In this document: one piece after another, positions 6,995 to 61,807 of the stretch
Layout of the letters: the number at the start of each line of letters is the position of its first letter
How positions within the stretch are numbered: position 1 is the first letter of the stretch
Source of the DNA: Heterostelium pallidum
Taxonomy: Eukaryota
Reading direction: 5' to 3'
Length of the DNA stretch: 64,000 nt
NCBI RefSeq assembly: GCF_000004825.1
Contig: NW_008805086.1
Span: 901,410-965,409 of the forward strand
Position numbers and translations under genes: made by a program
The notes under the pieces: generated by a model
The model's input: the letters and a program-made list of their open reading frames with translations, nothing else
What the model was told of the DNA's origin: nothing
The model's database searches: none

Positions 6995-9340
6995 TTAATA
7001 ATGTTGAGACTTTAATTTACTTTTGAGATCGGATAGCATTTCGTTGAGAGCATTATCATGACTATCAATATCGAATGATGTGAATTCAGTTTCATCATCT
7101 GTTTTAGTCGATGAAATTCCAGACGGAATTGATGGAATTAATGGACTTGATTTGTGTAGATCGAATTGATGATTGTTGTTGTTGTTATTGTGAGTATTCA
7201 TTTGGTTTGCATTTCTTGATTTTTCAGAGGGTTTGGTTTCCTCTAGGTCTAAAGATGATCGAGTTTTTTCACTTGGTTTTGTTTCACTGCTGCCTTCCGG
7301 TTTGTCAGTTTCAGTTGGCTTGTCTTTTGGTTTATCAGTTTCAGTTGGCTTATCGGTTTCAGTTGGCTTGTCTGCGGGTTTATCAGTTTCTGTTGGCTTG
7401 TCTGCGGGTTTATCGGTTTCAGTTGGCTTGTCTTTTGGTTTATCAGTTTCAGTAGGTTTATCAGTTGGCTTGTCTTTTGGTTTATCAGTTTCTGTTGGCT
7501 TATCAGTATCAGTTGGCTTGTCTGCGGGTTTATCAGTTTCTGTTGGCTTGTCTTTTGGTTTATCAGTTTCAGTTGGTTTGTCTTTTGGCTTATCAGTTTC
7601 TGTTGGCTTATCGGTTTCAGTTGGCTTGTCTTTTGGTTTATCAGTTTCAGTTGGCTTATCAGTATCAGTTGGCTTGTCTGCGGGTTTATCGGTTTCAGTT
7701 GGCTTGTCTTTTGGCTTATCAGTATCAGTGGGCTTGTCTTTTGGTTTATCAGTATCTGTTGGCTTGTCTTTTGGTTTATCAGTTTCAGTGGGCTTGTCTT
7801 TTGGTTTATCAGTTTCGAGTTGGCTTATCAGTTTCTGTTGGCTTATCAGTATCAGTTGGCTTGTCTTTTGGTTTATCAGTATCAGTGGGCTTATCAGTTT
7901 CTGTTGGTTGGTCTTTTGGTTTATCAGTTTCTGTTGGTTTGTCTTTTGGCTTATCAGTATCAGTTGGCTTGTCTTTTGGTTTATCAGTTTCTGTTGGCTT
8001 ATCAGTTTCTTTTGGTTTATCAGTTTCTGTTGGCTTGTCTTTTGGTTTATCAGTATCAGTTGGCTTCTCTTTTGGCTTATCTGTTTCGGTTGGTTTGTCT
8101 TTTGGTTTATCAGTATCTGTTGGCTTGTCTTTTGGCTTATCGGTTTCAGTTGGCTTGTCTTTTGGTTTATCAGTTTCTGTTGGCTTATCAGTATCAGTTG
8201 GCTTGTCTGCCGGTTTATCGGTTGGTTTGTCTTCTGGCTTACCAGTTGGCTTATCAGTTGGTTTATCAGTTGGTTTATCAGTTGATGGAGTTTGCGATGG
8301 AGTTTGCGAAGGAGTATGGGATGGAGTTTGCGAAGGAGTATGGGATGGAGTTTGGGATGGAGTTTGGGATGGAGTTTGGGATGGAGTTTGGGATGGAGTT
8401 TGGGATGGAGTTTGCGAAGGAGTTTGGGATGGAGTATGGGATGGAGTTTGCGAAGGAGTTTGGGATGGAGTTTTAGATGGAGTTTGAGATGGGGTTTGGG
8501 ATGGAGTCTGAGATGGAGTTTGAGATGGAGTTTGCGATGGAGTTTGCGAAGGAGTTTGAGATGGAGTTTGAGATGGAGTTTGAGATGGAGTTTGCGAAGG
8601 AGTTTGTGTTGGCGGCTCTGTAGGCAAACGTGATGGAGTATGAGTAGGTTTCTCTGTTGGTTTATCAGTAGGTTTTTCTGTTGGTTTGTGTGTTGGCTTA
8701 TGTGATGGTTTTTCTGTTGGTTTTGTGGTCGGATTATGTGGTTTATCTGTAGGTGGATTTATATCTGAGATAAATAGTATTAATAATCTAAAAATAGAGC
8801 CAAGTATTTCCATTTGTATATTTCACTTACCCACACATCTTGGTACATTAGGACAACACGATGTACCATGACAATTTCCAGGTGATGGTCCCCATTGACA
8901 AACCATTCCTTTCGCCTCACATTGGAGTGTACCACAGGTATCTCTTGGTGGTTCGAAATAGGTAAAGTTTCTCGAGGGTTTGCAAACACTCCAGAATTCG
9001 ATTACTTCGCCAGTGACTTCATTTCTACCACAAGAGTTTATATTTTCACAATTTCCAATGTTTCTGTTGACACAAAAATGAACTGTATTACCACAACAGC
9101 TTATAAATGGCATATATTGACATTTCGGATATAGTTTTGTACAAGTTTGTTCATCATTAATATTTTCACAATTACCTCCTGGAAATAATTTGAAAAAAAA
9201 ATAATGATTAGTAAAATGTTACATGGATACCTTTTAAATATTTTAAACATAAAATACAAACCATATTTTCTTAATCTAAAAGAGCTTACAAAATGAATAT
9301 AGATTATTAAAATTAATATAATATAGTTTATTAATTTCAT
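6995..9340 (-). CDS. secreted Cys-rich N-terminal domain + Thr/Pro/Lys-rich mucin-like tandem-repeat protein (5' exon tentative; internal frameshift near 7817)
   Basis: Candidate signal-peptide exon MKLINYIILILIIYIHF (9340-about 9290). Cys-rich exon 8831-about 9183 (18 Cys, ...CQWGPSPGNCHGTSCCPNVPRCV) ends at a GTAAGT donor, followed by a 66-nt intron 8765-8830. The last exon 6995-8764 encodes TDKPKDKPTE and PSQT repeats and a C-terminal tail ending at the stop codon (6995-6997). The minus-strand ORF is split by a +1 shift at a tcagtttcGagttgg unit. Confidence 0.55.
7230..8640 (-). repeat. coding tandem repeats: about 30-nt TDKPKDKPTE units (7230-8280) and 12-nt PSQT units (8290-8600)
   Basis: Periodic ttatcagtttcagttggcttgtcttttgg units and ggagtttgggatgg units are visible directly. 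All six frames stay open across them, which explains the long mirror-frame ORFs on the plus strand. Confidence 0.85.
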
Positions 9341-10226
9341 TTTAGAAAATATTTTATTAAAATTGAAGATAGATATATATATTTTTTCTTTCTATCAATT
9401 GTTTTTGTTTTTGTTTTTCTATTTATATACTGTCTTCAAAATGTAAATAGAAAATCAAACTTGCAAATAAGATGAATTCGAACAGTTATCTTCTGTTGGA
9501 AAGTGGGGGTGAATATGACTGATTGGGGTGAGTGTGAAATTATTCATCATTGATCAAAATGGGTATGAATAATTGTACACACAGCTGGTTTTTTTGTGTA
9601 CTGACACTGTGTTGAAAATGATCATTTTCAAACACCATTAAAAATGAATACAATATCTATATCTACAATGATAAATAAAATATAAAACATATAGGTTTCA
9701 ATGTGTTGTTTGTAGGTGATATTTAAAACTACAAGATAAAATAATTTAGTTGTTGATAATAATTGTTTCAAATAAATCTGAATCATTGGGTTTGAATAAC
9801 AATGTTAAATTGTAAAAGGTCAATATTTAGTTGAAAAAGAGAATCATTCGAGATTTAGTTTTATAATATTACCACTATGTTTTCTTTTCCAAAAAATGAA
9901 CAATAAGTTAATAGCATAGAATATATAGTATAGAATGATCACTTTAGCAAAGAATCTATTTTGTTTTAGTTGACAATATATTTTTTAATCCTTGTTACTC
10001 ATAAGTAAAATATCTGACAAAAAAATTGTAAATTATAAATAAAAAAATCAACAACTTCTTTTCTAATATTTATGACGAACATCAGATATTAAGTTCAAGA
10101 AAGAATGAATATGTTAAAATATATTATTTTTTTGTTTTTGTTTTGTTCTTTAAAGTCTATATAATTTAATAAATCAACAAAACAGACTGATATTAATTTG
10201 TTTTGCAATGATCATGTACAAACAAG

Positions 10227-10680
10227 TTGTGCATCGGTAACGTTATTAAATTCAACAGTATCGGTGTCCCTAGATCAACCAATTTATTGGGATGTAGCCG
10301 TTCCAACTACAGATGTTATTTGCCTACTGAGCTGTCCGATCTTGGACTTAATGGAAAGATAACCAGTATTGACAATCGTGTTTTTCAAGATGCTGATGAA
10401 GCTAGTGCTGGTAATATTACTCAAGATGACTCATCGCAGTATAGAAAGATAAGAGTTACCATACCAAAATATGACTATACAGTCCTATAGGATCCTGACT
10501 TTTCCAATATTCTCTGTAGATGATAAAGACTCAGATCAACTATGTAGATCTGACAATAATAAGTTAAGTAAAGGTGCCATCATTGGAATTGTTGTGTGGT
10601 ACTATTGCATTTTCTGCTTTGGTTGGTCTTGGAATTTTCTTGTTTAGGAAATATAAATACAATGAAAAATCTATCAATTA
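10227..10680 (+). pseudogene. possible gene relic: LRR-like segment plus a C-terminal TM helix, spread over three frames
   Basis: Frame 1 encodes RCYLPTELSDLGLNGKITSIDNRVFQD (LRR-like), ending at 10490. A second frame from ATG 10470 runs to 10646. A third frame gives the TM helix LLCGTIAFSALVGLGIFLFRKYKYNEKSIN ending at 10680. GC content is raised. No clean GT-AG introns join the frames. Confidence 0.25.
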
Positions 10681-11054
10681 AGTTGAAATTATTTAAAAAA
10701 AAGAATAATAAAAATAAAAAATTGTTTAATTTTAAAGTAGTATATTAGTTTTTTGATATTGATTTAATCATTTAATTTGGTTCAAATATTTTTCTTAATA
10801 TATGTTTATAAAGGAATTGAATAGTTTGTATTAATAAAAATTCAAATTTTGAAAAAACCCTCGTAAATTTGTCGGTTACAACAAAAATTTGAATTTTTAA
10901 AAATCTAAATTTTTATATTATTTTTTTTGGATTTATTAAATTAATATTTTTTTTCAAAAACAAACAACTAACACTAATCATTTTTGTATATCTATCTGTT
11001 TTTTTTTTGTTTTTAATTAATTAAATTAAATTTAGTTAAATAAACTCAAGAGAG

Positions 11055-13179
11055 ATGGAACAAATAGATTTAGCAAATCACCTTTTACTTTTCAATAGTG
11101 AGTTGGAGACTTTGGTTAAACTAAATGATAGTTACTCTCAAGATCTGAAATCAAGTGAACAATCACTACAAATCACAAAGGAGTTACTTGATAAAGAGAT
11201 TGATAAGAACAACAAACTAATCAATCAACTTGAACACTACAAACAACAATTGGATAATGGAAACAGCAACAATATTAGTAATAGTAATAATAATATTTCC
11301 AATTATTCACATGATCAAGTGGAACAAGCAAATCACTCAATAAATACAAACAACTTTCAAAACATTGAAATTAATCAACAACAACAACCAGCTAGCAATA
11401 ATAACAATAGCTATAATTATAAAGAAGAGAGCGGAGAAGAAGTTGAAATACTAAAAGATCGTTATAATAATGTTTATTCAGAGTTGACAAATTCATTGCT
11501 AAAGATAGAGTCGTTGGAGATTGCCTATAGTGACTTGGATAAATCGTTGAATGAACGATCCGAAGGTTCGAAACAAACGATTGCCAGATTGGAGAGCGAG
11601 TTGAGTGTGGCGCTGGCGCAGTTGGCGGTTAAGGACAACGAGTTGAGCGAGATGCATAGAATGCATGCACAAGAGAGTTCCGCACAGTCACGTGACCTCA
11701 TAGAGAGTTACCACAAGATGAAGGAGGAATACGAGAGTATGATTGAACAGATCAACAGTGAGCACAACACCGCTTTGGAACGAATGAACGCACAGAGCAC
11801 CGAGAAATCCAGTCAGGTGACCGATCAGCTGAGTCGGGTGCAGTCGGACAACAGCGAGTTGCAGAAACGAATCGATCAGCTGCAACAGGATCTCGAGAAG
11901 TTCAAGGATGACTGTGAATTCCTGACGATTGAGAATCAGCAGAACACCAGGGATTTGGAGCAGTCGAAGGAGGTGAACAGACAGTGGAAGGAGAAATTCG
12001 ATAAGGTTGGCGATGAACGCGCGGAAATCGAGAGATTGGCGAATGACAATTTGGAGGAGGTGAAGCGTTCGGCCGCCAAAGAGAAGTTGGCAGCGGATGA
12101 GCAGTGTCAAAAGTTGAGAGAACAGTTGGAGCTGGCCGGTCAACTTAGAGAAGACGAGATTACAAAGCGATTGGCTGATTCACTGGATAAGTTGGAACAG
12201 CAAAAGAATAAGGAGATCGAGGTGTACAAGGGTGGTGCTGTCGAGATAGTAAGACTGACGGAACAACTCGAACAATCACAGAAACAACTACAACAAACCA
12301 ATCAACAATATCAACAGCTACAAAACAATTTCAAACAAATGGAGAACAACGCACAACTACGAATCGAAGCATTACAAACTGATAAGGATTCACTTGAAAA
12401 TCAATTGGATCAACTTGGAAATCGAATTAAAATAATGGATCAACAAATTATATTATTAGAAAATAATAGAAATAACAAAAATGATAATAATAATAATAAT
12501 AATGATAAAGAAGAAAGCAGTAGTAATAATAGTAATGATAATAATATAGATAATAATGAAATGACAATTAAATATAATGAATTATTTGGTGAATTTAAAA
12601 AGTTAAAAGATAGTTTGGTGGAAAAAGATAAGGATATTAATGTTTTAGAGGATAACTATAAAGATAGAATAGAGTATCTGGAACAATCGATAAGAGAAAA
12701 AGATAGACAACTACAGCTGGGAGTACACAATAATCAAAACCAACGAGAAACAATTAAATTGGACGAGCGTGTAAAGTCATTGGTTCAGAGAACACTCAAA
12801 TCCAATCGTAGAAAGTATAATGAATCACAATCGATTTACAAACTATCGGATCAACGTTACATTGTAAATTCAACACCAGTAGAAATAACCATAGATGAAA
12901 ATGATAAACTTTTAGGTATGTACAAAGATAAATATATTGTAAACAATTGATCAACTGAACATAATCACCTAACTAACTAACTAACTATTTTTAATATTAT
13001 TATAATCAAACAAAGCGAAACAAAGCGGAGCATTAGTTTCAGTACCTTTGGAATCATATTTTGTAAAACAAGAACCATTTGTAACCTGGGAGAGAGTTTT
13101 GGCCATTCTATTAGGATTTTTCTTTGCATTCTACCTTTTTGTGAAAGTTTATCCCTTCCAAATTAGGTATTTTAATTAA
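11055..13179 (+). CDS. long coiled-coil protein with predicted C-terminal tail-anchor exon; exons 11055-12915 and 13016-13179
   Basis: Exon 1 ORF of 631 aa is a heptad-rich, Q/E/K/L coiled coil with N-rich tracts. A GTATGT donor at 12916 lies 30 nt before the ORF stop. A phase-1 acceptor at aaacaaag|CG (13015) opens an exon encoding ...VTWERVLAILLGFFFAFYLFVKVYPFQIRYFN*, a TM helix followed by a short tail. The intron is 100 nt and AT-rich. Confidence 0.55.
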
Positions 13180-13359: not shown

Positions 13360-14252
13360 CTAATTTACATTGACTGAGGCATGATTGTGTTCTGGCAAAC
13401 CATATTCATCCACTGCCGAAGGCTCTGTAGTCGGTGCAGATGGTATCAAATAGGATGGTGTATCTTCAAGTTCCAATTCATCATCCATTGACATTAATTC
13501 TAGAGTGGAGAATATGATAAATGTTAATTAACGTTAGATTGTTTATATTAAATTAGGTAAAAGCAAAACAACTTACCGGCTTCTAATTCAGATTCGTCTA
13601 AACTGTCTGGTGTTGTATATGCTCTGCTCATAGATTGTTGAAGGTCGTTGTTGAAATCTAGAAGATCTTGCATCTCGTCTTGCAAGCTATCGACATCGTC
13701 TACATTGATATGTTTGAATTGCTGTTTCATCTCTTTGGCACCCTGTTTCATTGCAGAGACCATCGTAACTGTATCTTGCATCGATTGTGTTGCAAATTTA
13801 GTTTGTTCCATATTGAATGATTGCTGTGATAATTGATCTCTTTGTGCCTCATACCTATAATCATCATTATCCATGTGTGTTGTGTGTTAGAGTTTGTTAA
13901 TTATTCAATATCTGTGTGTAGCAGCAGTACTCTTTCTTACATTTTCTTTTGTTTCATTACTCTCATAGCCTTTGCTTTTATACCGTTTTGGGCGGGACCT
14001 GGTCTTGTATTCTTTATCTGTTGTCTATAGACAGCCAACTCTTGATCTAACTTTCTAATCTTATCATCTAAACCACCTATATTCATATCCAACTATAATA
14101 TAGTTTGAACAGATAAATATGTTGTCAGTCAAAGGAAATTATCATACAAATTGAATTGAACGTAATCTAATCAAAATCACACTTACACGCTTGGTTGCTT
14201 CATCAAGAGTTGGAGCAGGTGCTGTTTTTGACATACCAAAGAATCTCTTCAT
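13360..14252 (-). CDS. vps60: ESCRT-III subunit Vps60/CHMP5; 4 exons about 14252-14187, 14092-13940, 13854-13577, 13499-13360; apparent 1-nt frameshift in exon 2
   Basis: Exon 1 MKRFFGMSKTAPAPTLDEATKR, exon 3 YEAQRDQLSQQSFNMEQ...DESELEA and exon 4 ELMSMDDELELEDTPSYLIPSAPTTEPSAVDEYGLPEHNHASVNVN* align to human CHMP5 over nearly its full length. Donors are GTAAGT/GTAAGA and acceptors are ..TATAG/..CTAG. In exon 2 the reading switches frame at ggtcccgcccaaaacgg, about 13993-14000. Confidence 0.85.
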
Positions 14253-14929: not shown

Positions 14930-15030
14930 GTGTGTGGGTCGTGATCGCTGGCATCGCTCCATAGTATAGACTTTGTGTTAAAGAGATAACCCTTTCGAGA
15001 CGTTTACTTGTATCTGATACCGTTAGGCAC
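14930..15030 (+). promoter_or_regulatory. GC-rich island immediately upstream of the rplp1 start codon (candidate core promoter / 5' UTR)
   Basis: gtgtgtgcgtgtgtgggtcgtgatcgctggcatcgctccatagtatagac sits within otherwise more than 85 percent AT intergenic DNA. A similar island containing gtgtgtgc lies upstream of rpl36a at 49640-49740. Confidence 0.25.
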
Positions 15031-15031
15031 C

Positions 15032-15535
15032 ATGAATTCAGCATTAGCCATCAATTACGCTACCCTCATCTTGCAAGACGAGAAGGTATGATAACATTTC
15101 TACACACAATACACACACCACACATCAGCTAAGCAGAGAGTCGAGAAGAGAAATGAAATTAGAATAGTTTTGTTAATGTAGTGAATCTCTTCATCTAATA
15201 TAGGCACCAATCACTGTCGAAAGCATCGTTGCTATCGCCAAGGCTGCCGGTATCACCGTCCCAGCCTACATGGCCCAATTGTACATCAACACCTTCGCCA
15301 AGAAGTCTGTTGAGTCCATCTTGGACAGCGTCTCCGCTGTTGCTGTAGCTGCCCCAGCCGCCGCTGCTGCCCCAGCTGCTGCCGCCGCCGCCAAGAAGGA
15401 GGAGCCAAAGAAGGAAGAGAAGAAGGAAGAGTCTGACGACGATATGGTAAGTTTATTTATTTAGTTTATTCTTATTGAGTTATCACTAATCACACTTTTT
15501 CACCAATTCTATAGGGTATGGGACTTTTCGATTAA
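15032..15535 (+). CDS. rplp1: 60S acidic ribosomal protein P1; exons 15032-15085, 15204-15446, 15515-15535
   Basis: MNSALAINYATLILQDEK | APITVESIVAIAKAAGITVP...AAAAAKKEEPKKEEKKEESDDDM | GMGLFD*. Ala-rich hinge and the canonical SDDDMGFGLFD-type C-terminus. Introns are GTATGA..ATATAG and GTAAGT..CTATAG. Strong non-AT codon bias. Confidence 0.9.
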
Positions 15536-16530: not shown

Positions 16531-17071
16531 ATATTTATTTGTAAACAAATAAAAAATAAATTGTTAATGAAACAAATTTCTAAAGTATCAATTTAAATAT
16601 ATTAATCCAAATTATGATATACTTATTTGGTACCAAGATAATACAATGATGTGTATATAGTGTAGATCTTTTTTTTTTCTATTCAATATATTCTAGTTTT
16701 CTATCGTTTGTTGCAGTAGCTTTGTTATTTACTTCACATTGTATTCGATTTATTGATTAGTTTTACTTATTATTAGATTAGATTCCATTGAAACAATTTT
16801 TAAATTTAATAATCATGAATGTGATCAAAAAGGAACTTAAATCAAACATGAAAAGCAACTTGAAGACTGTAGTATTTTCATTTATTAATTTTGTTTGTGT
16901 ATCGGGAATATTGATGTCCAAGTACACTTCGACGGGGCAAGCACGAATCCTCAGCTCAACAACAATAAGACAAACAAATATAAAAGCAAAACAATTTAAG
17001 ATAAAATCAAAGCTAAATATATTATTTAATAAAATTTAAATATTTGATTTTATAATTAGTTGTTGTATACA

Positions 17072-17250
17072 CGGGAGGCAACCAGCATAGGGACGAGAGG
17101 AGACCAGCATAACTACGAGAGATAACTGGCATAACGACGAGAGGAAACCAGCATAATAACGAGAAGAGTCTGGATTAACGACGAGAGGAAACCGGCATAA
17201 TAACGAGTGGAGTCTGGCATAACGACGAGAGTAGACCGGCATAGTAATTG
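17072..17250 (+). repeat. tandem array of about 22-bp repeats (family A: ggcataacgacgagaggaaacc)
   Basis: About 8 direct copies with variants (ataactacgagag, ataataacgagaag). Confidence 0.85.
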
Positions 17251-17639
17251 AAGATACAAATCATATATGTAAAAAATGATTATTTTGAATTAAATATATA
17301 TTTTTTTATTAAAAACCAAAAAAAATAAAAAAATTAATAAATGTAATTATAATTGATCAAATCAATTTTTTTTAAAGTAAGTTAGAATACTACCACACAC
17401 ATATCAATAATATATGCTATGTTAAGAGAAGTGAGGTGATTTACAATAGATCAAGATTGCAAGAAGATTATAAAGAATTAAGAGAAACTAATTAAAAAAT
17501 AAATTTAAATCTTTTTATAGGTTGAATGGTTTCACTTCACTGTTATAATTAAATTAAATCAGTTGTTTCCGAATTAAGTTCTTAATTACTCAGACATCAA
17601 AAAAAATTATTAAAGATTTTATATAAACATTTAGACAAT

Positions 17640-18120
17640 AAAATACAGCTACCAACAGAACCACAACTGACAACAACCACAACATCAAATAATTCATCAA
17701 CACCTCCAAACTCACTCATTTCCAGAAATATTTCATAAAGTTGAGGTTGATGATGTTGTTGGATAAGCGATAGTGGAATGACATTTGCTACTTCTGCTCC
17801 TGGTCAAGTAATTCAACATTTATAAGTATTTGGATTCAACAAAATTACTATTTCAATAAAAATTTAAACTACCCTTATAATTATCTATTAATTTTATTTT
17901 ATCGATTTGTGAAACTGAAGGAGTAGTTGAGCAGATGGAAATTGAGAGTGGCGTGTTCATCGGTAACCTAGTTATGGAGTTGATGGTAATTGAGTTGTAG
18001 AGTTGATCGAAACTAAGATATGTAGTTGAGGTAAGTATCTACAGTATCTGAGTTGTGGAGTTGACGGAAACTCTGGCTTCGGGCAACTAAGTATGGCAAT
18101 TGAGTCATCAACTCAGTCCA
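17640..18120. repeat. left inverted-repeat core (reverse complement of 24123-24515)
   Basis: For example 17725-17840 (ttcataaagttgaggttgatgatgttgttggataagcgatagtggaatgacatttgctacttctgctcctggtcaagtaattcaacattta) matches the reverse complement of 24365-24480. The left arm also contains an extra internal tandem copy. Confidence 0.8.
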
Positions 18121-18475
18121 GTTACTCAGTTCGGTAACTAAGTCAGTCCGGTAACTAACTCAATCTGGTAACTCAGTCCGGTAACTCAGTCCGGTAACTA
18201 ACTCAATCAGGTAACTCAGTCAGGTAACTCAGTCCGGTAACTCAATCCGGTAACTCAGTCCGGTAACTGAGTCCGGTAACTGAGTCAGGTAACTGAGTCC
18301 GGTAACTAACTCAATCTGGTAACTCAGTCCGGCAACTCAGTCCGGTAACTAACTCAATCTGGTAACTGAGTCGGGTAACTAACTCAATCTGGTAACTCAA
18401 TCTGGTAACTGAGTCCGGTAACTAACTCAATCTGGTAACTCAGTCAGGTAACTCAGTCCAGCAACTAAGTGGAAT
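18121..18475 (+). repeat. tandem array of 13-17-bp repeats (family B: ggtaactcagtcc / ggtaactaactcaatct)
   Basis: More than 20 direct units are visible directly. Confidence 0.85.
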
Positions 18476-18719
18476 CAACTCTGTTAATAAAAGAAATAAT
18501 TAAAAAGAATTTGAAAGATATCAACTTTTTATTTAAAATTTGATTGATTGATATTGTTGTTTTAAGTTTTAATTTATGAGTGTGGGGTGTGTATTATGTT
18601 ATCAGCAAGGAAATAAGTAGTATTATTATTAATAAAAGTAGAAGTAGGTGAAGAAAACAATGTTGGTATTATTATTATTAGCTACATGTTTGTTATATAT
18701 TGGTTGATTGATTGACAAT

Positions 18720-19700
18720 GTTAACTAATTTTATGTTAATCTTCTCATTTATTTCTTTGGAGCGGTTGCAGCAGCTTCCTTCTCTTCATCCTTCTCCTTT
18801 TCGACTTCATCTACCAACTATTCGACTTCGGATTCCTTGAACAATTTAATTGGTTCATTTCATTTATTGATAGCAATTTCAATATTCTTATTTCCTGATT
18901 CTACAACCTATTTATTTGTTAATATTACAATAGTATTAATAATAATAGTTAGTCATAGTTGTTTACTATATTTATAGTAATAAATGAATAATATATTATT
19001 ACCTCAAGAAATGATCTAACAGACAATTTAATTGAAGCAGTATCACTCTCATCTGTAAAGTTCTTCTCTAAAAATTCACTGACAGTCTTTGAGTTACGTC
19101 CGATGGCGGCTGCCTGTTCCTTCAATGAACCGGGTGGATCTGTTTGAAAAAGTTTTGGTGTACCGTCTGAATCGAAACCGACAATCAATGTAGAAATACC
19201 GAATGTCTAACACCACCACTTTGTGTATCTCTATAACAATTGTTTAAAATTCATTAAATTAGTATCAATATTTGACTCGATCGCTATAATCTTTTTGTTT
19301 TGTTCAAAGTATATTTACTTGTTGAATTCCAGCGATATATTTAGAGATATTCTACAGATGGTACATCATCCAATGATAATCTATATGATTGACACTCAAC
19401 AAGAGCATATAATAAAATCATAAATAGATAATAAATATATAAAAATGTATAAATGTGTTAATGTTAATTAATAAGTTACTAATAAAGCTATAAATAATGA
19501 TGATAATGATGATTATAATTATTATGTTTCATAAATGATATTAAACTTACCTTATTATATCTATAAATATGAATAAATAGATCGATTGTTGCTTGAATTA
19601 CTTTAATTAAATAATCAATTATGTGTGGTTATCCCAGACCCTGGAAAGAAAAAAAAAAGGACGAACCCATTGAAATGGATCACTTGGAATAGCTTGATTG
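18720..19700 (-). pseudogene. proteasome subunit alpha type-7 (PSMA7/alpha4) pseudogene
   Basis: The 3' half still reads [63 protein letters not shown] | VESGNKNIEIAINK*NEPIKLFKESEVE*LVDEVEKEKDEEKEAAATAPKK. This is collinear with human PSMA7 but has an in-frame TGA and a TAG where Tyr is expected. Upstream there is an in-frame TAG plus a local frame slip (RYTKWWC*TFGIS versus RYTQSGGVRPFGIS), a 2-nt deletion in ...VEY(I)SKYIAGIQQ, and a heavily decayed 5' half (YNQAIPSDPFQWVR versus [20 protein letters not shown]). Intron positions with GTAATA/GTAAAT donors are still recognisable. Confidence 0.75.
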
Positions 19701-19869
19701 TAATATTGGAAAATAGAATAAAAAAACAATGTTGTCAGTTGTTAGTATTAATTAATGATAGAAACAAATAAATAAAGAACGAATACAAGAATAATTAAAA
19801 TTGTATTCGTTTATAAATTATTTAATAGACCTACAAAAAAAACCTAGAACTTCGTTAACCTGAATTTCA

Positions 19870-20330
19870 CTTTACATATAGTATACAAATATGATATTAA
19901 TAAATAAACAACATTGAAAATAAATAAATAATAAAAAATAAATTAATAATAATATATTACCTTTTCAACGATCCTTCGGCCGTGCCCACCCTGCCGCCCA
20001 TGCAACGACCAGTACCACCACCATATAGCCAAGACCATGACCAAAGAAACCAGACTCTTTTAAGATTGATCTACTATTTTATATATAATATACAAATATG
20101 ATATTAATATATAAAGAAAATTGTAAATAAAAAAAAATAATAAAAAAATAAATAATATATTACCTGTACAACGATCCTTCGATCGTTCCCACCCAGCCAC
20201 CCATGCATCGACCAGTACCAGCACCAGAACCACCAAACCCAGAACCTAGAATCCAGACATCTCTACCATTGATTACCTTGCCGACCCATCCTCCCAAAGT
20301 TCAAGAGACATCTAGCAATTACAATTCCAA
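19870..20330 (-). repeat. tandem duplication (about 190-bp unit, 2-3 copies) of a Gly-rich exon plus its flanking intron-like sequence
   Basis: Units: ...YGGGTGRCMGGRVGTAEGSLKR|gtaata and ...GSGFGGSGAGTGRCMGGWVGTIEGSLYR|gtaata. Between the copies, 3 of 6 substitutions are synonymous in the Gly frame, and all 6 are non-synonymous in the alternative Trp-rich frame. There is no start codon and no complete gene model. Confidence 0.3.
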
Positions 20331-20571
20331 TAACAGAGACCACCACTCCATCCTGTTATTATTATTATTTACTTTTTATTGCTTGGTATTCTAAATTGAT
20401 AGGTATTATTATTTGGTTTTGTTTTGTTTTTGATATTGTTAATAATGTTTAAAATGTAATTGGCAGTGTTGTCAATGTTAGTGTTGATTTTGATGATTTT
20501 GTCGTTTTTCTCTTTCCAACCAGTTGGTCTTCTAAATTGGAAGGTGTTGTGGTTTGGTTTTGATTTATTAT

Positions 20572-21345
20572 TTATTTTTTTATATAGTTGTGAATATAGT
20601 ATTTGATGTTATTAATGTAATCAATGTTAGCAATTACATTGTTGTTATTATTATTGTATTCTATTTTAATTTGATTTGTTGGAATTCTAAATTGATAAGT
20701 TGATTGATTTCCTGTTGATTTAGGGTTATTATTGATTTTGTTTCTCGAATTAAAATTGTCATTTTCGTTCTGATTGTTGTTGTTGTTGTTGTTGTTGTTT
20801 TTATTATCTTTTTTATTTTTAATTGTGGGTTGTTTAAATTGATATGTGTTTTTGTTGCCCTCTTTTTGACTAACTGTTTTTTGTTGCTGTTGCTGTTGTT
20901 GTTGTTGCTGTTGTTGCTGTTGTTGCTGTTGCTGTTGCTGTTGTTGCTTTTGTTCTCTTCTTATTCTTGATCTTTCTTTGGAAAAGTACAAAAGGAACAG
21001 ATTTCGATCTGACTCATCTTTAATCTGCAGTTTCTTTTGGTTGTAAACTGTTACCAAATCCAGTGATAAACTTGTGACTGGAAAGCTTTGGATAACTTCC
21101 TCCAGCGACTTATAATTAACTATATTATTATCTTGTTGTTGTTGTTGTTGTTTGGGTTGCTGTTTATCTTCGAATTCCTTCATTACTCGTACGAATTCAT
21201 GGATAAAGTAATATGAGAAACTCATTCGATCTTCTTCAACTTCGAGCTCAGCTTTCTTTTCGAAATAAATACAAACTAATTCCCACGAATAGCTGGTAAT
21301 TGGAAAATTATCTATTTGATATTTAAGTTGTTGTGACATATGCAT
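20572..21345 (-). CDS. Q/N-rich hypothetical protein with a repeated xTYQF(K/R)xPT motif; probably frame-disrupted at its 3' end
   Basis: 257-aa ORF from a real ATG. It has an internal 40-aa duplication (DNFPITSYSWELVCIYFEKKAELEVEEDR / QSFPVTSLSLDLVTVYNQKKLQIKDESDR), a poly-Q tract, and the motifs KNTYQFKQPT and STYQFRIPTN. Two further motif copies (NTFQFRRPTGW, NNNTYQFRIPSNKK*) continue downstream to about 20400, but in a different frame after an A-rich tract at about 20572. Confidence 0.4.
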   Translation of the reverse strand: MHMSQQLKYQIDNFPITSYSWELVCIYFEKKAELEVEEDRMSFSYYFIHEFVRVMKEFEDKQQPKQQQQQQDNNIVNYKSLEEVIQSFPVTSLSLDLVTVYNQKKLQIKDESDRNLFLLYFSKERSRIRREQKQQQQQQQQQQQQQQQQQQQQQQKTVSQKEGNKNTYQFKQPTIKNKKDNKNNNNNNNNNQNENDNFNSRNKINNNPKSTGNQSTYQFRIPTNQIKIEYNNNNNNVIANIDYINNIKYYIHNYIKK

Positions 21346-23484
21346 GATTTATTTAATATATAAAAGTAATGAAATATATTTAAGAGTTTGTATGTTAAGT
21401 ATGATTTAAAAACGATCCAAAGGCTAAAATCTAAATTTATAATATCTATTTATGTATATATGTAATTTAATAATACTAATTTATTTTGAAATTTTTCACT
21501 CATTATATTTTTTAATTTTTTTTTTCTCAATACAATATTGTTTTTGATTGTATAGGGACATAGATAGGATTCTGATATTATTTCTTTTGTTTATTCAAAA
21601 GGCTTCACTAATCACTAGTAGTGATTGAACACTTTCAATTGCGTAAGTGGCAAAACAACAATTTTATGACAATAATTGAAAACTATCAAAAATAAAATGA
21701 AAAAGTAATAAAAATAAAGATAATTTCTTTAAATAAAATTAAAATTAATTTATTTCTTATTTTTAAAAGAAGAGAGTAAATGAGAAATCAACTATCTCTT
21801 TATTATTATTATCGATCACTATCTAAAACTATATTTGATAGAAATTTGAAAGATATATGTTAGTTTTGATCAATATTTTTCTTGAAAATATTGAGATATT
21901 AATAAAACTTACTTAGAAATAACAAATTAATATGAATATTACTTATATTGAAAAGAAAAATTTCGATATTAATAGTATTTACTAGTCTATAAATATTTAA
22001 AATAGATTTAAAAACAATCAATAATAATAAGAAACCGCCAAATTTTGAAAATAATTAACGTCATTTTATCCGATACTCTCAATTAAATAGAATAATATTT
22101 AAATATATAGATGTCTTAATTTAAAAGTTTGGTTGATGTTTTTTGATTGGCAAAAATATAAAAATAAAAAAACACACAATAAGAATAACCCACCCACACT
22201 TGACATTGTCATTCAATACCAATAAATCGTGAATCAAATCAATTAAATTGTGTTTCACTTTTAAATAAACAAACAAATATAATTTATTTAGATTTTATTT
22301 TGGTAATATATTTATCTCAACATAAAAGAAAGATTATTATATTAATTAAATATTTTATTCAATGAATACAACAAGTTGATATTTAAAATTAAAACAAAGT
22401 AATTTTTACTTAAAACTTTCAATTTTTTATTTATAATCAATTTATTTGTTAAAAGTATAAAAGATAATTTATTTAATTCTTAGTTTAAAAATATTAAATA
22501 AAAAAAACTAGAAAATAAAAGTGTACATTCCTTTGTTTTTCATTAAAGTTATTTAATGTTTCACCTTAACTCAACTTCAAAAAATAACAAACTAATAGTA
22601 ATCTTTAGATGAGTGTGATAATAGAAATATCTTGATATCATATATCATAATAATAATGTAATACAGATAAGATAAGAAAAAAGTTAAATCATTTAACTTG
22701 GTTTTATTCAATTGAAGAGTACAATCAACACTTACAATCTTGGGAAGTACGAATTATCAATATGACTATGAAAGAGATGTTTAGGAATGATGAATAAGTT
22801 GAACACTTTAATCTAACTATAGAATTCAATTTGAAATTTTCATTTTATAGTAAATCACTTCTATTCTAGTATAATTGTAATTATTGTTTTAGGACAGATT
22901 TCACGAATCAATCTATTACTATTACACAATATAATCATCTTACAATTTAAATAAATAATTATAGTTTTCAATTACAATAATAATATTCTTCAATTATTTT
23001 ATTTAACAAAAAACAACAATATTATTTTATTTTTGCAACATAAAAAAAAAAAAGATGAACTTGTCAAATAAAAATGGGGTGTTGCAAATTCAATAAATTA
23101 ATAAAATTTAAAATTAAGCTTGTTGTTTCTTCATTGGTAATGATCGCCTGTTTTTTTTATTTTTGAATATTATATTATAATAAAATGAATTATTTAATTA
23201 ATTTTAATATTTATATTTCAAATTTGAATATTAATTCAAACTTTTAATTGGCGCTTAACGGTTGCCGCCATTTTTGAGTTCAAACTGTAAGTTAACGAAT
23301 CAAATTTAAAACTATATAAACCTATAATTTCTTTCACAATGTCATTTTTCATTATTTTTCAAATACAAATAATTTTGTAAGTAATAACTAATAGTTATAA
23401 CTTTAACTTATTTATATCTTTGTTTTACTAACTCTTTGTTTTATCTCTTTTTATCTCTTTCTTCTTTTCCAAGTCCTCTTTACC

Positions 23485-24122
23485 ATGCCAGTTGCCTCCT
23501 TACTATGAGTGATGCCTCGTTGCTATGATGGTTACCTCTCATTACCATGCCAGTTGCCTCTCGTCGTTATGCCAGTCTCCTCTCGTAGTTATGCCGGTTT
23601 CCTCTTGTAGTTATGCCAGCTTCCTCTCGTCGTTATGCCCGTCTCTTCTCGTTTCCTCTCGTTACTGTGCCCGTTTCCTCTCGTAGTTATGCCGGTTACC
23701 TCTCGTAGTTATGCCGGTTACCTCGTTACTATGCCGGTTACCTCTCGTTACTATGCCGGTTTCCTCTCGTCATTATGCCTGTTTCCTCTCGTCATTATGC
23801 CTGTCTCCTCTCGTAGTTATACCGGTTACCTCTCATTACCATGCCAGTTTCCTCTCGTAGTTATGCCTGTCTCCTCTAGTCGATATGCCAGTTGCCTCTC
23901 GTAGTTATGCCGGTTTCTTCTCGTTACTATGCCGGTTTCCTCTCGTAGTTATGCCTGTCTCCTCTCGTAGTTATGCTGGTTTCCTCTCGTAGTTATACCG
24001 GTTTCCTCTCGTAGTTATGCCGGTTTCCTCTCTTTGTTATGCCGGTTGTCTCTCGTAGTTATGCCAGTCTCCTCTCGTCACTCTGCGGGTTGCCTCTCGT
24101 CACTATGCCGGTTTCCTCTCTT
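23485..24122 (+). repeat. tandem array (about 29 copies) of the 22-bp family-A repeat in inverted orientation (atgccggtttcctctcgtagtt)
   Basis: Visible directly. It is the reverse complement of the 17072-17250 unit. Confidence 0.9.
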
Positions 24123-24592
24123 TAGTTGACTCAGTTAACTCAATTGCCGTACTTAGTTGCCAGAATCCAGAGTTTCAATCAACTCCACAACTCGGATGCT
24201 GTTGATAGATACCTCGACTCCATAACTCAGTTACCAATGAACACGTCACTCTCAATTTCGATCTGCTCGACTACTCCTTTACCATCAGTTTCACATTTTG
24301 ATAAAATAAAATCAAAAGATATAATTAAAAAGGTAGTTTAAATTTTTATTGAAATAGTAATTTTGTTGAATCCAAACACTCATAAATGTTGAATTACTTG
24401 ACCAGGAGCAAAAGTAGCAAATGTCATTCTACTACCACTAATCCAACAACATCATCAACCTCAACTTTATGAAACATTTGGGGAAATGAGTGGGTTTGGA
24501 GGTGTTGATGAATTATTAGTTTCTCGTTACTATGCCGGTTGACTCTCGTAGTTATGTCGGTGTTATGCCGGTTTCCTCTAGTGGTTATGCCA
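24123..24592. repeat. right inverted-repeat core (24123-24515) plus a short family-A array (24520-24592)
   Basis: See the left core. The terminal segment is tttctcgttactatgccggttgactctcgtagttatgtcggtgttatgccggtttcctctagtggttatgcc. Confidence 0.8.
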
Positions 24593-24721
24593 AAAATTAA
24601 GTTTGTGTGAAGTTCACACAATCAAAAAAGGGGATTTAAAATTTTATATTATTTTAACATAATAAAAAAAATCATTTAATTTACTTTATTAATTAAAATC
24701 AATAATTACAATTATATAAAT

Positions 24722-25401
24722 ATGATTCTTCTTTATTCATATGCTGTTATTTTAATATTAGTAAGTTACAGTTTAAGTTATAGTTTAGCTTTGATTAGAT
24801 TTAAATAAGGATTGGATTAGAGGACCTTTAATTCAAAACATTTTGTTGTTTGTATATTTGTATCTGTCTTTTTGTTTTTTTTTTTTTTTTTGTTTATAGA
24901 AGTGTAATACACTTATAATCACTTATAAGAAACATGTTAAACTTTTAGCTAACAGCAATATTTATCAATAGGGAGGTGCCATTGGATATCTCAAGTCTGC
25001 CTCTACACCATCTTTGGTGATGGGACTTCTCTCTGGTTTGCTTGTTGCCTACGGTGCATCTTTAACCGTAAGTTATCATTAAATTTAAATAAATGATAAA
25101 AGCAATATCAACTCTATTGTATTAACTTTTGCAAAATGAATAAACAAATAAATACAGAGTACAAATAAGAGACAAGGAAATCAATTGATTATGCGTAAGT
25201 ATAGGTTATTAATTATTAATAGATGATTCAATTTTCAGTCAATCATATACTAACTCTTCTCTGTACTATTATATAGTTGTATCACTTGGTCTATTGATCT
25301 TTATGGGAATGAGATTCTACAACTCACAAAAGTTCATGCCAGCAGGTCTTGTATCCCTGTTTTCATTGATTGTTTTCGCAAAGACTTATTTTGAATATTA
25401 A
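24722..25401 (+). CDS. TMEM14-family small membrane protein; exons 24722-24760, 24972-25067, 25158-25194, 25277-25401
   Basis: MILLYSYAVILIL | GGAIGYLKSASTPSLVMGLLSGLLVAYGASLT | STNKRQGNQLIM | LVSLGLLIFMGMRFYNSQKFMPAGLVSLFSLIVFAKTYFEY*. It matches human TMEM14A/C blocks (GGIVGYVKTGSVPSL...GIMGMRFYHSGKFMPAGL). All donors are GTAAGT and the phases are consistent. Confidence 0.75.
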
Positions 25402-26139: not shown

Positions 26140-28926
<2,787 letters not shown>

Positions 28927-29047: not shown

Positions 29048-31301
29048 TTATTGGTTTTGTTTTTGTTGTTGTTGTTGAATTTGTTGATTTCCAACTCTTA
29101 TGTCTTTGAGTAATGCTTTTGCTTCTTCTTTCTCTGGACCGGCATAGTCGAGCAGTCGTAGACAATACTTTTCGGCTTGGTCGAATTGCCCGAGTTTCTT
29201 GTGGTGGTGCGCCAGGAAGTGAAGTGCATCGATTGTCTCTTGACCATCGATTTTCTCGTTGTCGCGATGATAGAGATTCTTCTTGTAGTAATAGGCAGCC
29301 TCTTCGTTTCTCTGCATGTCTTGGTAGAGCTTGGCAAGCTTGGAGAGTGCGACACGCTCACGATCATAGTTCTCCTCTGCTCGCTCGTAGCAACGAATGG
29401 CATCTGGTATTCTCTCGAGAATCTCATAGCAACCAGCGACCGCACACCACATTCTCGGGTCATACGGATGTATTGCCGTTGCCTTCTGGAAGTAGTAGAG
29501 CGAGTACAACGGTAGCTTAAGCAACTGATAGGTTTGTCCAAGTCCATACCACGCCCTGTAGTCTTTCGAGTTGATATCCACTGCTTTTCTATAGGCATTG
29601 ATAGCAGCCGCTACATTTTTAATCTCCAAGAATTCGTGACCAATCAATGTCCATGCTAAATGATCATTTTTAATAACAATATAGTTAATTGGCTATGATC
29701 AAATATAAACATAGTAGTTTAATATTATTTAAATGTAATATCTAATTAAACTTACCAGCTAGATATTTATCATTCAATTTCAATGCTCTTTGGAAATAGA
29801 GTATCGCTTTATCATGTTCCGATTTCAAACTGTAGTAGTTACCAATGATACAACAGGTCTCTGGAGAATACTTTTCGGTGGTCATAGCTTTGTGAGCCAA
29901 CATACTAAGATTCGCTTTATTATTATGAACGTACAAGATATTGCTGTAAACATCGATACTCTCTAATCTATGTGGTTCAATCTCTAATATCTTTTCAAAC
30001 AATTCCTCTGCAACACCATATTCTATAGATTATTATTTTAATGAAAAGTTAATAAAATAATAATAGTATTTCAAAAAGTATTATTATTTACCTCTAAGAT
30101 TATAATGTCCAATGGCATTTTGTGCAGCTATATAAGTTGAATTTGGGAATGTTTTCGAGAGGTTATTGTAGATGGAGAGTGCCTCTTTGTTTTGTTGTAG
30201 TTCGAGTGTGGTGTGCGCATAGAAGAAATCTTTCATAAAGTGATCTGGTAGTTTCAGTTGTGATATAGATTGTAGATCTTGACAGAGCGAAGCAAGATCG
30301 TGCCAAGCCGACCAATTGCAAGGATAGAGTGTCACCGACTTTACCAGTACTTGTTTGGCACTGGCGATGTTGTTGTTCTTCTTCAGTATAACCGCATAGA
30401 GGTAAAGCAAGAAAGCATCTTGACATTGCTCACCAGTATTGCGGTACCACTGTTCCATCTTATTGGAAAGTTGTAACATCTCTCTGGTTACCTCTGCATT
30501 ACCACCACCACCACCACCACCACTATTATTTGCACTACCACCTGATTTTCCACCTGCGGTATTCTTATCCATTCCACCATCTAACTGTGTATTGACGTTG
30601 CCGTCATTCGAAGGGTTGTTCCCACCGCTACCATTTCCAGATGAAGGAGAAGAAGAAGAACCACTTGTTCCACTATTGTTATTGCTACTATTGTTAGACC
30701 CTCCAGATGTAGATTCTTTACTCTCGATCGATTCCTCAAGAGAACGCTTCTCATAGGCAAGATAGAGTGAATACCACTGGAGAAAGAGTGACAGTGAACT
30801 CCTGCAGCTCTGATGCTCCAAGACATCTGCACAACGTCTGTACTCTTTCAAATCGAAATAGCTCTTTGCCAATGTGTACTTTACATGTTCTTCACTTCCA
30901 TACTTGATAGTGCTATTCGATCGTACTTCTTTTTCTCTTTCGGTTCTACTGGAGACCGAAGAATCCGACAGACCAACGAATTCATGTCGTGAATGTGAAC
31001 CGACAACCACACAACACTGACAGATCTCTGTGTTACAATCTAAACAGTAGGCAATACAATCATAGGTATTGTGTATTTTACATTTTATCTCTATATCTAT
31101 ATCTAAACAATCTTGATCTACATGATTATCACTGCTGTTGTTGTCGTTGTTGCTGCTGTTGAACACCTGTGAATCTAAACCATTAAGTTGTTCTGACGAC
31201 CATTTTGAACTTAAGTATAAACCTCTTTTCGATAGATCTTCAATCGATTTGATTAATTGATTTTTTATTTTATATATTGTTTTACTATTTGTGTTGTTCA
31301 T
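29048..31301 (-). CDS. anapc8: anaphase-promoting complex subunit 8 (Cdc23), TPR protein; exons 31301-30092, 30022-29756, 29655-29048
   Basis: The C-terminal exon reads [53 protein letters not shown]..., which aligns to human CDC23 ([53 protein letters not shown]). There are TPR repeats throughout. Introns are 69 and 100 nt (GTAAAT..CTATAG, GTAAGT..ATTTAG), both phase 1. Confidence 0.9.
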
Positions 31302-59903: not shown

Positions 59904-60834
59904 ATGATGTTCAAAAAAACAATTATTTGTCTTGTTTTTACTATTGTTTTATGTTTGTCTTGGTTGAGTGCAGCCAATGCTTTGACTCAAACAGCCAAGC
60001 AAGTCGCAATTTCACCAGGTTCCTATATGTGGTATTTGGAGTATCTTCCACCAACTTACTCTGCGACAGGACCAAATAAATCTCCAGTCCTTATTTTCTT
60101 ACATGGTGTTGGGCAAAATGGAGACGGATCACAAGGTGCCCTTCAAATGCTTAAGGATGCTGCAGGTTCTCCTCCATACATGATCGACAAGAATACATGG
60201 CCAACTACTTTCTCTTTCATTGTAATATCACCACAAACCTGGGGTTGGTGGGATTCACCAAAAGTAAGTTAATAGCTGTTAGGTTTATCATTATAGAAAT
60301 GTATTAATTTTAATTTATATTCTAGACTGTTCCATTAATTAATCAAATTGGAGCTTTATATCCAGGTGCCGATATTACAAGAGTCTACTTAACTGGTCTT
60401 TCCATGGGTGGAGCAGGAGTTTATGATACCATGCGTCAAAGTAAAGCTGTTTGTGATAAGTTGGCTGCGGTTATTCCCATTTGTGGTGCTCAAGGTTTTG
60501 GTGCCAACGATTGGATTGGTCCAGTTACATCAGTAAGTTAAATAAGAATAGATTAAAATTATTACTTTTAAATAAAAACTAATTGAAATCTTTCTTATTA
60601 TAGGGATTGCCAGTGTGGGCTTTCCATAACTCTAATGACCCGACGGTCTCTGTTTGGAATTCTAGAAACTGGGTAAATGGTTTGAATGCTCAAAATATTT
60701 GTCCAGTTGCTAAATATACAGAATATGTTGCTTCTTCTCATGATGCTTGGACTAAAACTTATGATGTTTCACCAACTAATCCAAACAATATCTACTCTTG
60801 GATGCTTTCATACACTACCAACAGAGTATCATAG
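59904..60834 (+). CDS. secreted alpha/beta-hydrolase esterase (PHB-depolymerase / carboxylesterase-like); exons 59904-60263, 60322-60532, 60604-60834
   Basis: Signal peptide MMFKKTIICLVFTIVLCLSWLSAANA. Oxyanion region PVLIFLHGVGQNG. Nucleophile elbow LTGLSMGGAG. Acid/His region VWAFHNSNDP...YVASSHDAW. Two GTAAGT introns, phase 0. Confidence 0.8.
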
Positions 60835-61807
60835 TGGTGGAACTACTTCTACCACAGGAACACCATCAACCACTGCACCATCAACTACAACCACAACCAC
60901 AGGAACACCATCAACCACTACACCATCAACTACAACCACAACCACAGGAACACCATCTACCACTACACCATCGACTACAACCACAACCACAGGAACACCA
61001 TCAACCACTACACCATCTACTACAACCACAACCACAGGAACACCATCTACTACTGCACCATCTACCACTGGAACTCAAACACCAACCCCAACATCAACTC
61101 CAGCTCCAGGAGTTTTCCAAAGAAAGTGGACTACTCCAGCCTCTCCATTTGGTTTCTGGGAGTACAGACCATCAACCACTCCAACACCAGGTATTGGATA
61201 TCCATTAATTATCCATCTTCATGGAGCTGACGGTGAGGGTACTGGTAGTTCCACTGATTTGAACAAAGCAGTTCAGACTTCATTACCAAAGTACATTAGA
61301 ACTGGTGAATGGCCAACTACCTATCCTTTCTTGGTACTTTGTCCACAAAACAATGGTATTTGGGATGCCGGAGTAAGCAATGTAATCAACACCTTGCTTG
61401 ATCTCTACTCGCCAGAGGTTGACCCAACTAGAATTTATTTGGTAGGTCAAGGTCGTGGTGCTCTTGGTGTAGTTCAATATTTGAAGAGCAATGCTACTCG
61501 TATCGATAGAACTGCAGCAATCTTCAATGTTAGAGTTTACACTGATGCTCATAACGCTACCATTGATCTCATGGTCAATGATCACCTTCCAACATGGTGG
61601 TTAACCAACAACGATGATCCAAACTCTGATCCAATCATGACAAAGAACTGGGCTAACTTCTTAAATGCACGTGGTGCCAACCCAGCTGCAAGACTAACTA
61701 TTAACCCATCTGGTGGTGCTGACTCATACACACCAGCATTCAACCCTGCCAACGCTGACCCAAACAATGTTTACAATTGGCTTCTATCAAAGACCAATGT
61801 TAGATAA
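60686..61807 (+). CDS. paralogous esterase-like protein: Thr/Pro-rich linker + hydrolase-fold domain lacking the catalytic Ser (GQGRGALG); start inferred from an ATG overprinted on the 3' end of the upstream gene
   Basis: The 373-aa ORF starts at a real ATG at 60686, in the +1 frame of the upstream gene's last exon. Its N-terminus MLKIFVQLLNIQNMLLLLMMLGLKLMMF is hydrophobic. A (GTPSTTTPSTTTTTT)n linker follows. The domain PLIIHLHGADGEGTGSS...VGQGRGALG...NVYNWLLSKTNVR* is collinear with the domain of gene 59904-60834. Confidence 0.45.
   Translation: MLKIFVQLLNIQNMLLLLMMLGLKLMMFHQLIQTISTLGCFHTLPTEYHSGGTTSTTGTPSTTAPSTTTTTTGTPSTTTPSTTTTTTGTPSTTTPSTTTTTTGTPSTTTPSTTTTTTGTPSTTAPSTTGTQTPTPTSTPAPGVFQRKWTTPASPFGFWEYRPSTTPTPGIGYPLIIHLHGADGEGTGSSTDLNKAVQTSLPKYIRTGEWPTTYPFLVLCPQNNGIWDAGVSNVINTLLDLYSPEVDPTRIYLVGQGRGALGVVQYLKSNATRIDRTAAIFNVRVYTDAHNATIDLMVNDHLPTWWLTNNDDPNSDPIMTKNWANFLNARGANPAARLTINPSGGADSYTPAFNPANADPNNVYNWLLSKTNVR

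Follow-up and report, generated by a model that had tools for sequence, protein, structure and literature searches.

Within a 64,000-nucleotide stretch of the Heterostelium pallidum genome (assembly GCF_000004825.1, contig NW_008805086.1, positions 901,410 to 965,409 of the forward strand; hereafter the window), a segment of about 7.5 kb at 17067-24592 is placed between two ordinary intact genes and carries at each end a copy of one array-core-array repeat, the two copies being diverged and inverted relative to each other. Its middle, about 5 kb long, contains only broken gene pieces and adenine- and thymine-rich (AT-rich) DNA. The structure itself is real: an inverted-repeat-bounded segment of gene debris in an ordinary gene region. 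Our tentative reading, held with somewhat less than even confidence, is that the segment is the remnant of an old, immobile, non-autonomous class II (DNA) element of the foldback type with transduplicated cargo. We assigned the foldback anatomy because long inverted arms with variable tandem units enclose a middle that lacks coding capacity.

Composite inverted arms

From the outside inwards, the order of parts was alike in both arms, in inverted orientation: an array of 22-bp units (A), a core, and one or more 13- or 17-bp units (B). The left arm reads eight A units, a 440-bp AT-rich spacer, the core and 26 B units. The right arm reads two full A units plus partials, the core, one truncated B-like unit and 29 further A units, all of these in the same orientation as the outer-right A units. 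The parts are listed below by window coordinates and strand.

17067-17242, minus strand: outer-left A array, 8 units of 22 bp with a 44-bp two-unit period
17243-17685, no strand: AT-rich spacer, in the left arm only, without an open reading frame (ORF)
17686-18108, plus strand: left core, with a unique part at 17686-17930 followed by units of about 23 bp to 18108
18110-18470, plus strand: B array on the inner side of the left arm, with 13-bp (AACTCAGTCCGGT) and 17-bp units, about 26 in all
23485-24126, plus strand: A array on the inner side of the right arm, with about 28-29 of the 22-bp units
24123-24517, minus strand: right core, the reverse complement of the left core
24518-24592, plus strand: outer-right A array, 2 full and 2 partial units, directly abutting the core

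A first-pass annotation of this DNA had described the two cores as reverse complements at 85-90% identity. The inverted match was confirmed by BLASTN (17688-18105 versus 24517-24138, E = 1.8e-113) and global alignment gave 345 identities in 381 aligned positions (90.6%), but homology begins at about 17686 and not at 17640 as had been proposed. The best block covered 202 nt at 93%, and identity was 91.8% in the unique part (17686-17930) and 88.2% in the repeat-like part (17931-18112). The substitutions between the arms comprised 20 transitions and 16 transversions, in addition to several insertions or deletions (indels). The 9% difference between the arms, together with these indels, led us to reject an assembly artefact.

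The array claims of the same annotation also held. The 22-bp A arrays at the outer ends lie in opposite orientation, the inner-left array of 13-17-bp B units was recovered with about 26 units, and 28-29 units were parsed where about 29 inner-right A copies had been reported. The A unit has the 22-bp consensus ATGCCGGTTTCCTCTCGTAGTT, which in the outer-left array is read on the minus strand; allowing up to 3 mismatches, 23 matches were found, all within the segment, where 0 were expected. Units of the inner-right A array decay towards the interior, and the truncated B-like unit (about 24127-24137) is joined in phase to the last A unit of this array. The B array has a higher-order period of 43 bp. 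Within the left core, 17931-18108 is composed of units of about 23 bp (GGTAACTNAGTTRTGGAGTTGAT), and these share GGTAACTNAGT with the B unit at a score reached by 0 of 1000 shuffles. Both A and B units start with AACT and contain CCGG; a relationship between them is only suggestive (p about 0.08). Similarity of the left spacer (17243-17685) to decayed A units was not significant. The arms are thus mostly related short-unit families, variously expanded, that surround some 245 bp of unique sequence.

Unit numbers differed between the arms. A 46-nt gap between the cores (17961-18018 versus 24123-24517) equals exactly two 23-bp mini-array units that are missing on the right, where the core has one such unit against three on the left; this shows that slippage or unequal exchange has altered the number of units in the arms. 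Array lengths are likewise unequal, with 8 outer A units on the left versus about 3 on the right, and about 26 B units versus 1.

A coding role for cores and arrays was considered and rejected: none of the unit lengths (13, 22 and 23 bp) is divisible by three, stops interrupt the frames of the core, and the inter-arm differences are mostly non-synonymous. When the A-unit pattern and 29- to 44-mers from the core were compared with collections of metagenome, viral and prokaryotic genomes, the only matches were isolated single sites attributable to chance, and no arrays were returned.

Gene relics of the interior

The interior was divided into the following features (GC, guanine-plus-cytosine content).

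18749-19430, minus strand: psmA7 (proteasome alpha-7) pseudogene fragment, residues about 82-245
19871-20226, minus strand: glycine-rich tandem duplicate, an exon with AT-rich intron-like DNA
20380-21345, minus strand: glutamine/asparagine-rich (Q/N-rich) orphan ORF region, with a 257-aa ORF at 20572-21345
21346-23474, no strand: AT-rich stretch, 19-23% GC

The decayed proteasome alpha-7 pseudogene reported at first pass was clearly recognizable, as its stitched translation matched residues 87-241 of PSMA7 in PDB with E = 7e-47. At least two frameshift corrections were needed, one of them for a 1-nt deletion in a Pro codon, and the last exon carries two in-frame stops. Two GT..AG intron-like interruptions are kept. 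A tblastn search with a human PSMA7 query found residues 82-220 alone, and the N-terminal third was found nowhere in the window. The piece is a truncated pseudogene copied at the DNA level, since it is partial and keeps its introns; origin as a retrocopy was rejected because the introns are retained.

Tandem duplication of an exon together with its intron was also borne out, the copies at 19871-20023 and 20078-20226 being 85% identical. The glycine-rich exon (..GTGRCMGGWVGT.EGSL..) ends at an AG/GTAATA donor site that is followed by AT-rich intron-like DNA, and the duplicate had no Pfam match. The Q-rich ORF had been called frame-disrupted. At 20572-21345 an ORF of 257 aa is technically intact; its (S/N)TYQF(K/R)xP module runs past the stop codon to about 20380 in another frame, and the ORF is therefore frame-disrupted. 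When 1.84 billion representatives were searched exhaustively with HMMER, three low-complexity matches resulted and no others, at E of 1e-4 or weaker. As first described, the remaining 2 kb or so is AT-rich and without an ORF, with none longer than 51 aa at 21346-23474 and no Pfam match in its stop-free stretches of at least 30 aa. Between the psmA7 fragment and the glycine-rich duplicates lies a short GC-richer patch (19620-19700, minus strand; ..AIPSDPFQWVRPFFF..), which had no Pfam match and may be a fourth gene relic.

Six-frame translation of the interior and the left flank into stop-free stretches of at least 30 aa gave no Pfam match at E <= 0.1 besides the proteasome fragment, and no remnant of a transposase, reverse transcriptase or recombinase was found in the interior by the Pfam scan. 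All three unrelated gene relics lie on the minus strand. To call them captured is to interpret, as they could equally be resident duplicates in decay.

It is very improbable that the locus is a functional hairpin, kept for regulation, in which read-through of the arms or the antisense psmA7 fragment yields double-stranded RNA and small RNAs. The geometry would suit such a role, since the inverted arms measure about 400 bp with 90% complementarity and the right end lies 131 bp upstream of an expressed-looking gene. The arms have, however, diverged freely, as the counts of transitions, transversions and indels given above attest, and the segment matched nothing meaningful among Rfam families.

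Origin of the segment

Foldback DNA transposons, among them Drosophila FB, Galileo and Tetris, are defined by variable internal tandem repeats within long inverted terminal repeats and by a non-coding middle domain (PMC4079207). The segment resembles them in its long inverted arms, in internal tandem repeats that differ in number between the arms, and in a middle of variable content that has no transposase coding capacity, as in a non-autonomous element. Each arm would be one copy of a composite terminal repeat made up of an A array, a core of about 420 bp and B units, and the two copies would face each other across an enzyme-free middle of about 5 kb composed of intron-bearing, DNA-level copies of host gene pieces that have since decayed. 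Movement would be by cut and paste of the whole unit, carried out by a transposase that is supplied in trans and binds the short reiterated units of the arms. Array lengths would later drift via slippage or unequal exchange, and substitutions would build up to the present arm divergence of about 9%, erasing any target-site duplication. We infer the mobility, the fragment capture and the binding of transposase to the units from this anatomy. We are more doubtful of the wider claim that the A-core-B arms represent an undescribed family of foldback-like, gene-fragment-carrying DNA transposons in Heterostelium, the first such architecture to be reported in Dictyostelia, with the CCGG-containing 13-, 22- and 23-bp units as transposase binding sites.

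The first-pass annotation had likened the layout to a non-autonomous DNA transposon or composite palindromic repeat with captured host gene fragments. The composite palindromic layout, the degenerate host fragments and the failure to find an enzyme agree with that suggestion; the target site and the single occurrence within the window do not, and they belong to a set of observations that weigh against a foldback element. Foldbacks carry target-site duplications of 8-10 bp and occur in several copies, whereas no duplication above chance was found at the ends of the segment: the best flanking direct repeat, AATTA, is 5 bp long, and random position pairs give at least 5 bp in most trials. Local alignment of the outer flanks gave no significant direct or inverted similarity. 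No second copy of the core, the A array or the B array was located elsewhere in the 64-kb window by BLASTN and unit scans, and peptides from the A array and both core ORFs had no match among 5.8 billion proteins. The arms are not mirror images, as the left has the 440-bp spacer and the right the extra inner array of about 29 A units, and the outer-left A array is closer to the inner-right A array (84%, its best inverted match being to 23924-24100) than to the outer-right A units (about 75%). Unlike those of foldbacks, the arrays extend to the very termini without a unique flanking domain, one arm has an extra inner array and the other an extra spacer, and the host is an amoebozoan. With the arms diverged by 9-10%, no recent activity can be claimed. 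Nothing in the analysis shows that the segment ever moved; with no target-site duplication above chance at its ends and no second copy in the window, its place among the foldback elements is unproven.

Much of this evidence is shared by a non-mobile alternative, which we consider a serious rival although somewhat less likely than the foldback reading. A single-locus minisatellite (A array, core and B array) would have been duplicated in inverted orientation, through staggered breaks during a small inversion or through palindrome formation, and would never have transposed; the interior would then be resident DNA with decaying segmental duplicates. Inversions with staggered breaks can leave inverted duplications at both flanks, and here too two inverted local copies bracket a segment with no target-site duplication found. 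Such a rearrangement accounts equally well for the single-locus evidence. It is favoured by the missing duplication, by the absence of another copy within 64 kb, and by the finding of neither an enzyme remnant in the interior nor a transposase-like ORF among the larger ORFs scanned in the window, none of which matched a transposase, reverse transcriptase or integrase. Asymmetry of the arms is expected from independent array turnover, and AT-rich stretches of 2-3 kb are present elsewhere in the window, so that the AT-rich interior is unexceptional. However, staggered breaks predict neither array-rich arms nor a cargo of unrelated gene fragments. A local rearrangement also leaves unexplained why three such fragments lie exactly between the arms and why GC-rich arrays of three related unit sizes flank the core, and it requires a 5.7-kb gene-free interval between otherwise close genes. 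Short-unit arrays flanking a core are a typical terminal-repeat design of DNA transposons (PMC4079207).

The genes on either side bear on the number of insertions. To the left, a minus-strand gene with a weak DUSP domain match extends from 15743 to about 16500, its start lying about 570 bp from the segment. To the right, a four-exon TMEM14 gene (Pfam E = 3.8e-25) has its ATG at 24723, 131 bp from the segment end. If the segment is excised in thought, the DUSP-like gene, starting at about 16500, and the TMEM14 ATG come to lie about 700 bp apart, which is a normal divergent intergenic spacer; this mildly favours a single insertion of the complete unit over two small ones in a gene-free interval of 5.7 kb. 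We regard as improbable the alternative in which a repeat of about 0.6-1.4 kb, bearing arrays, was inserted twice (or was re-inserted locally) in opposite orientations into an intergenic region that had gathered pseudogene fragments independently. The 7.5 kb would then not be one unit, or would be at most composite, as paired foldback elements can flank host DNA. In its favour, the right arm reads three A units, core, one B unit and 29 A units, with A units co-directional on both sides, so that the core appears inside or beside an A array and not as a clean terminal repeat, and the inner edges of the two arms share no homology. That a family without a further copy in 64 kb should land twice within a distance of 5 kb is nevertheless unlikely unless transposition is local, and neither arm alone has a convincing flanking duplication, the best being AT-rich, 7-8 bp long and within background.

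The segment can also be set beside other classes of elements. Pack-MULEs and transduplicating DNA transposons carry host gene fragments between terminal inverted repeats. Like them, the segment has unrelated intron-bearing host gene fragments (psmA7 and the glycine-rich exon) between inverted repeats and no transposase. A Pack-MULE would also have ends related to an autonomous Mutator-like element and a 9-10 bp duplication, and of these the duplication is absent here. Sea-urchin TU elements have terminal inverted repeats in which outer tandem repeats of about 15 bp adjoin an inner non-repetitive domain, with variable middles. The segment shares with these elements the placing of short tandem repeats outside and a non-repetitive domain inside its inverted repeats, and no sequence relationship is expected. 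With DIRS-1-type tyrosine-recombinase retroelements it has in common a dictyostelid host and inverted terminal repeats that span a few hundred bp. Unlike DIRS-1, its arms are array-rich and its interior is host-gene debris in which the six-frame Pfam search (stretches of at least 30 aa) found no remnant of a reverse transcriptase, RNase H, methyltransferase or tyrosine recombinase.

Comparison with named Dictyostelium repeat families, as offered at first pass, proved to be misplaced. The APC8 protein encoded in the window is 81% identical to that of H. album, and as the host is Heterostelium, the D. discoideum families (DIRS-1, Tdd, DDT, thug, skipper and TRE) are not a relevant comparison. 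For the same reason, nucleotide similarity to catalogued D. discoideum DNA transposons (Tdd-4/5, DDT and thug) is not expected.

Surroundings and significance

The remaining window is ordinary gene-dense DNA. Genes for LigB, TNFAIP8-like, CHMP5-like, ribosomal P and TMEM14 proteins are present, as are those for a chromodomain protein, APC8, SPT2, an arrestin/SAM protein, fibrillarin, a tetraspanin and several hydrolases. GC content per kb ranges from about 20 to 42%, and FNIP repeats occur. A chromosome-level assembly of H. pallidum exists with 28.1% GC, and its repeats were annotated generically by RepeatModeler (PMC13003018).

The APC8/Cdc23 ORF (30084-31301, minus strand), 81% identical to its counterpart in H. 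album PN500, had its next best hits in Acytostelium (48%) and P. violaceum (46%). The APC8 loci of A. subglobosum, P. violaceum, T. lacteum and C. fasciculata had no DUSP-like gene, no TMEM14 and no arm-like DNA. Shared neighbours were CHMP5, in A. subglobosum only, and the chromodomain gene, in T. lacteum only. Linkage of CHMP5/Vps60 and APC8 within about 9-15 kb (13548-14092 and 29048-31301 in the window) is common to H. pallidum and Acytostelium subglobosum, where the linked genes lie at 829-1257 and 10001-11996 of the fetched locus; the genes between them differ. The adjoining chromodomain gene is common to Tieghemostelium lacteum (about 15002-15127 of the fetched locus).

Repeats of other kinds were found outside the segment. 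At 7299-8606, tandem arrays with periods of 30, 48, 60 and 78 bp are followed by 27 copies of a 12-bp unit (GATGGAGTTTGG). These arrays overlap long ORFs on both strands, one of which matches the PT disordered repeat, and the region is probably a repetitive coding region. A 638-aa ORF at 27010-28926 combines a C-terminal chromodomain (E = 5e-13) with a long array of the AAAGAG type (ER/EK-rich) and a run of 22 CAACAA copies (poly-Q); its product is a chromatin protein of the host and not a retroelement integrase. At 60851-61062, a highly regular 45-bp repeat (4.7 copies, 95% matches) encodes a Thr/Pro-rich segment, and the ORF around it (60686-61807) had no Pfam match. A perfect 19-nt palindrome, TTGTGTGAA-g-TTCACACAA, occupies 24603-24621, beginning 11 bp beyond the segment on its right side and lying some 100 bp before the TMEM14 ATG; it may be an operator-like or promoter element, or may be unrelated.

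What the segment means depends on the distribution of its arms. If they are confined to this locus, the segment is an old local rearrangement of limited interest. If they belong to a dispersed family, a foldback or transduplicating type would be added to the sparse catalogue of dictyostelid DNA transposons, and the segment would illustrate the shuffling of gene fragments in a compact amoebozoan genome. Insertion 131 bp upstream of TMEM14 may, moreover, have rewired the promoter of that gene.

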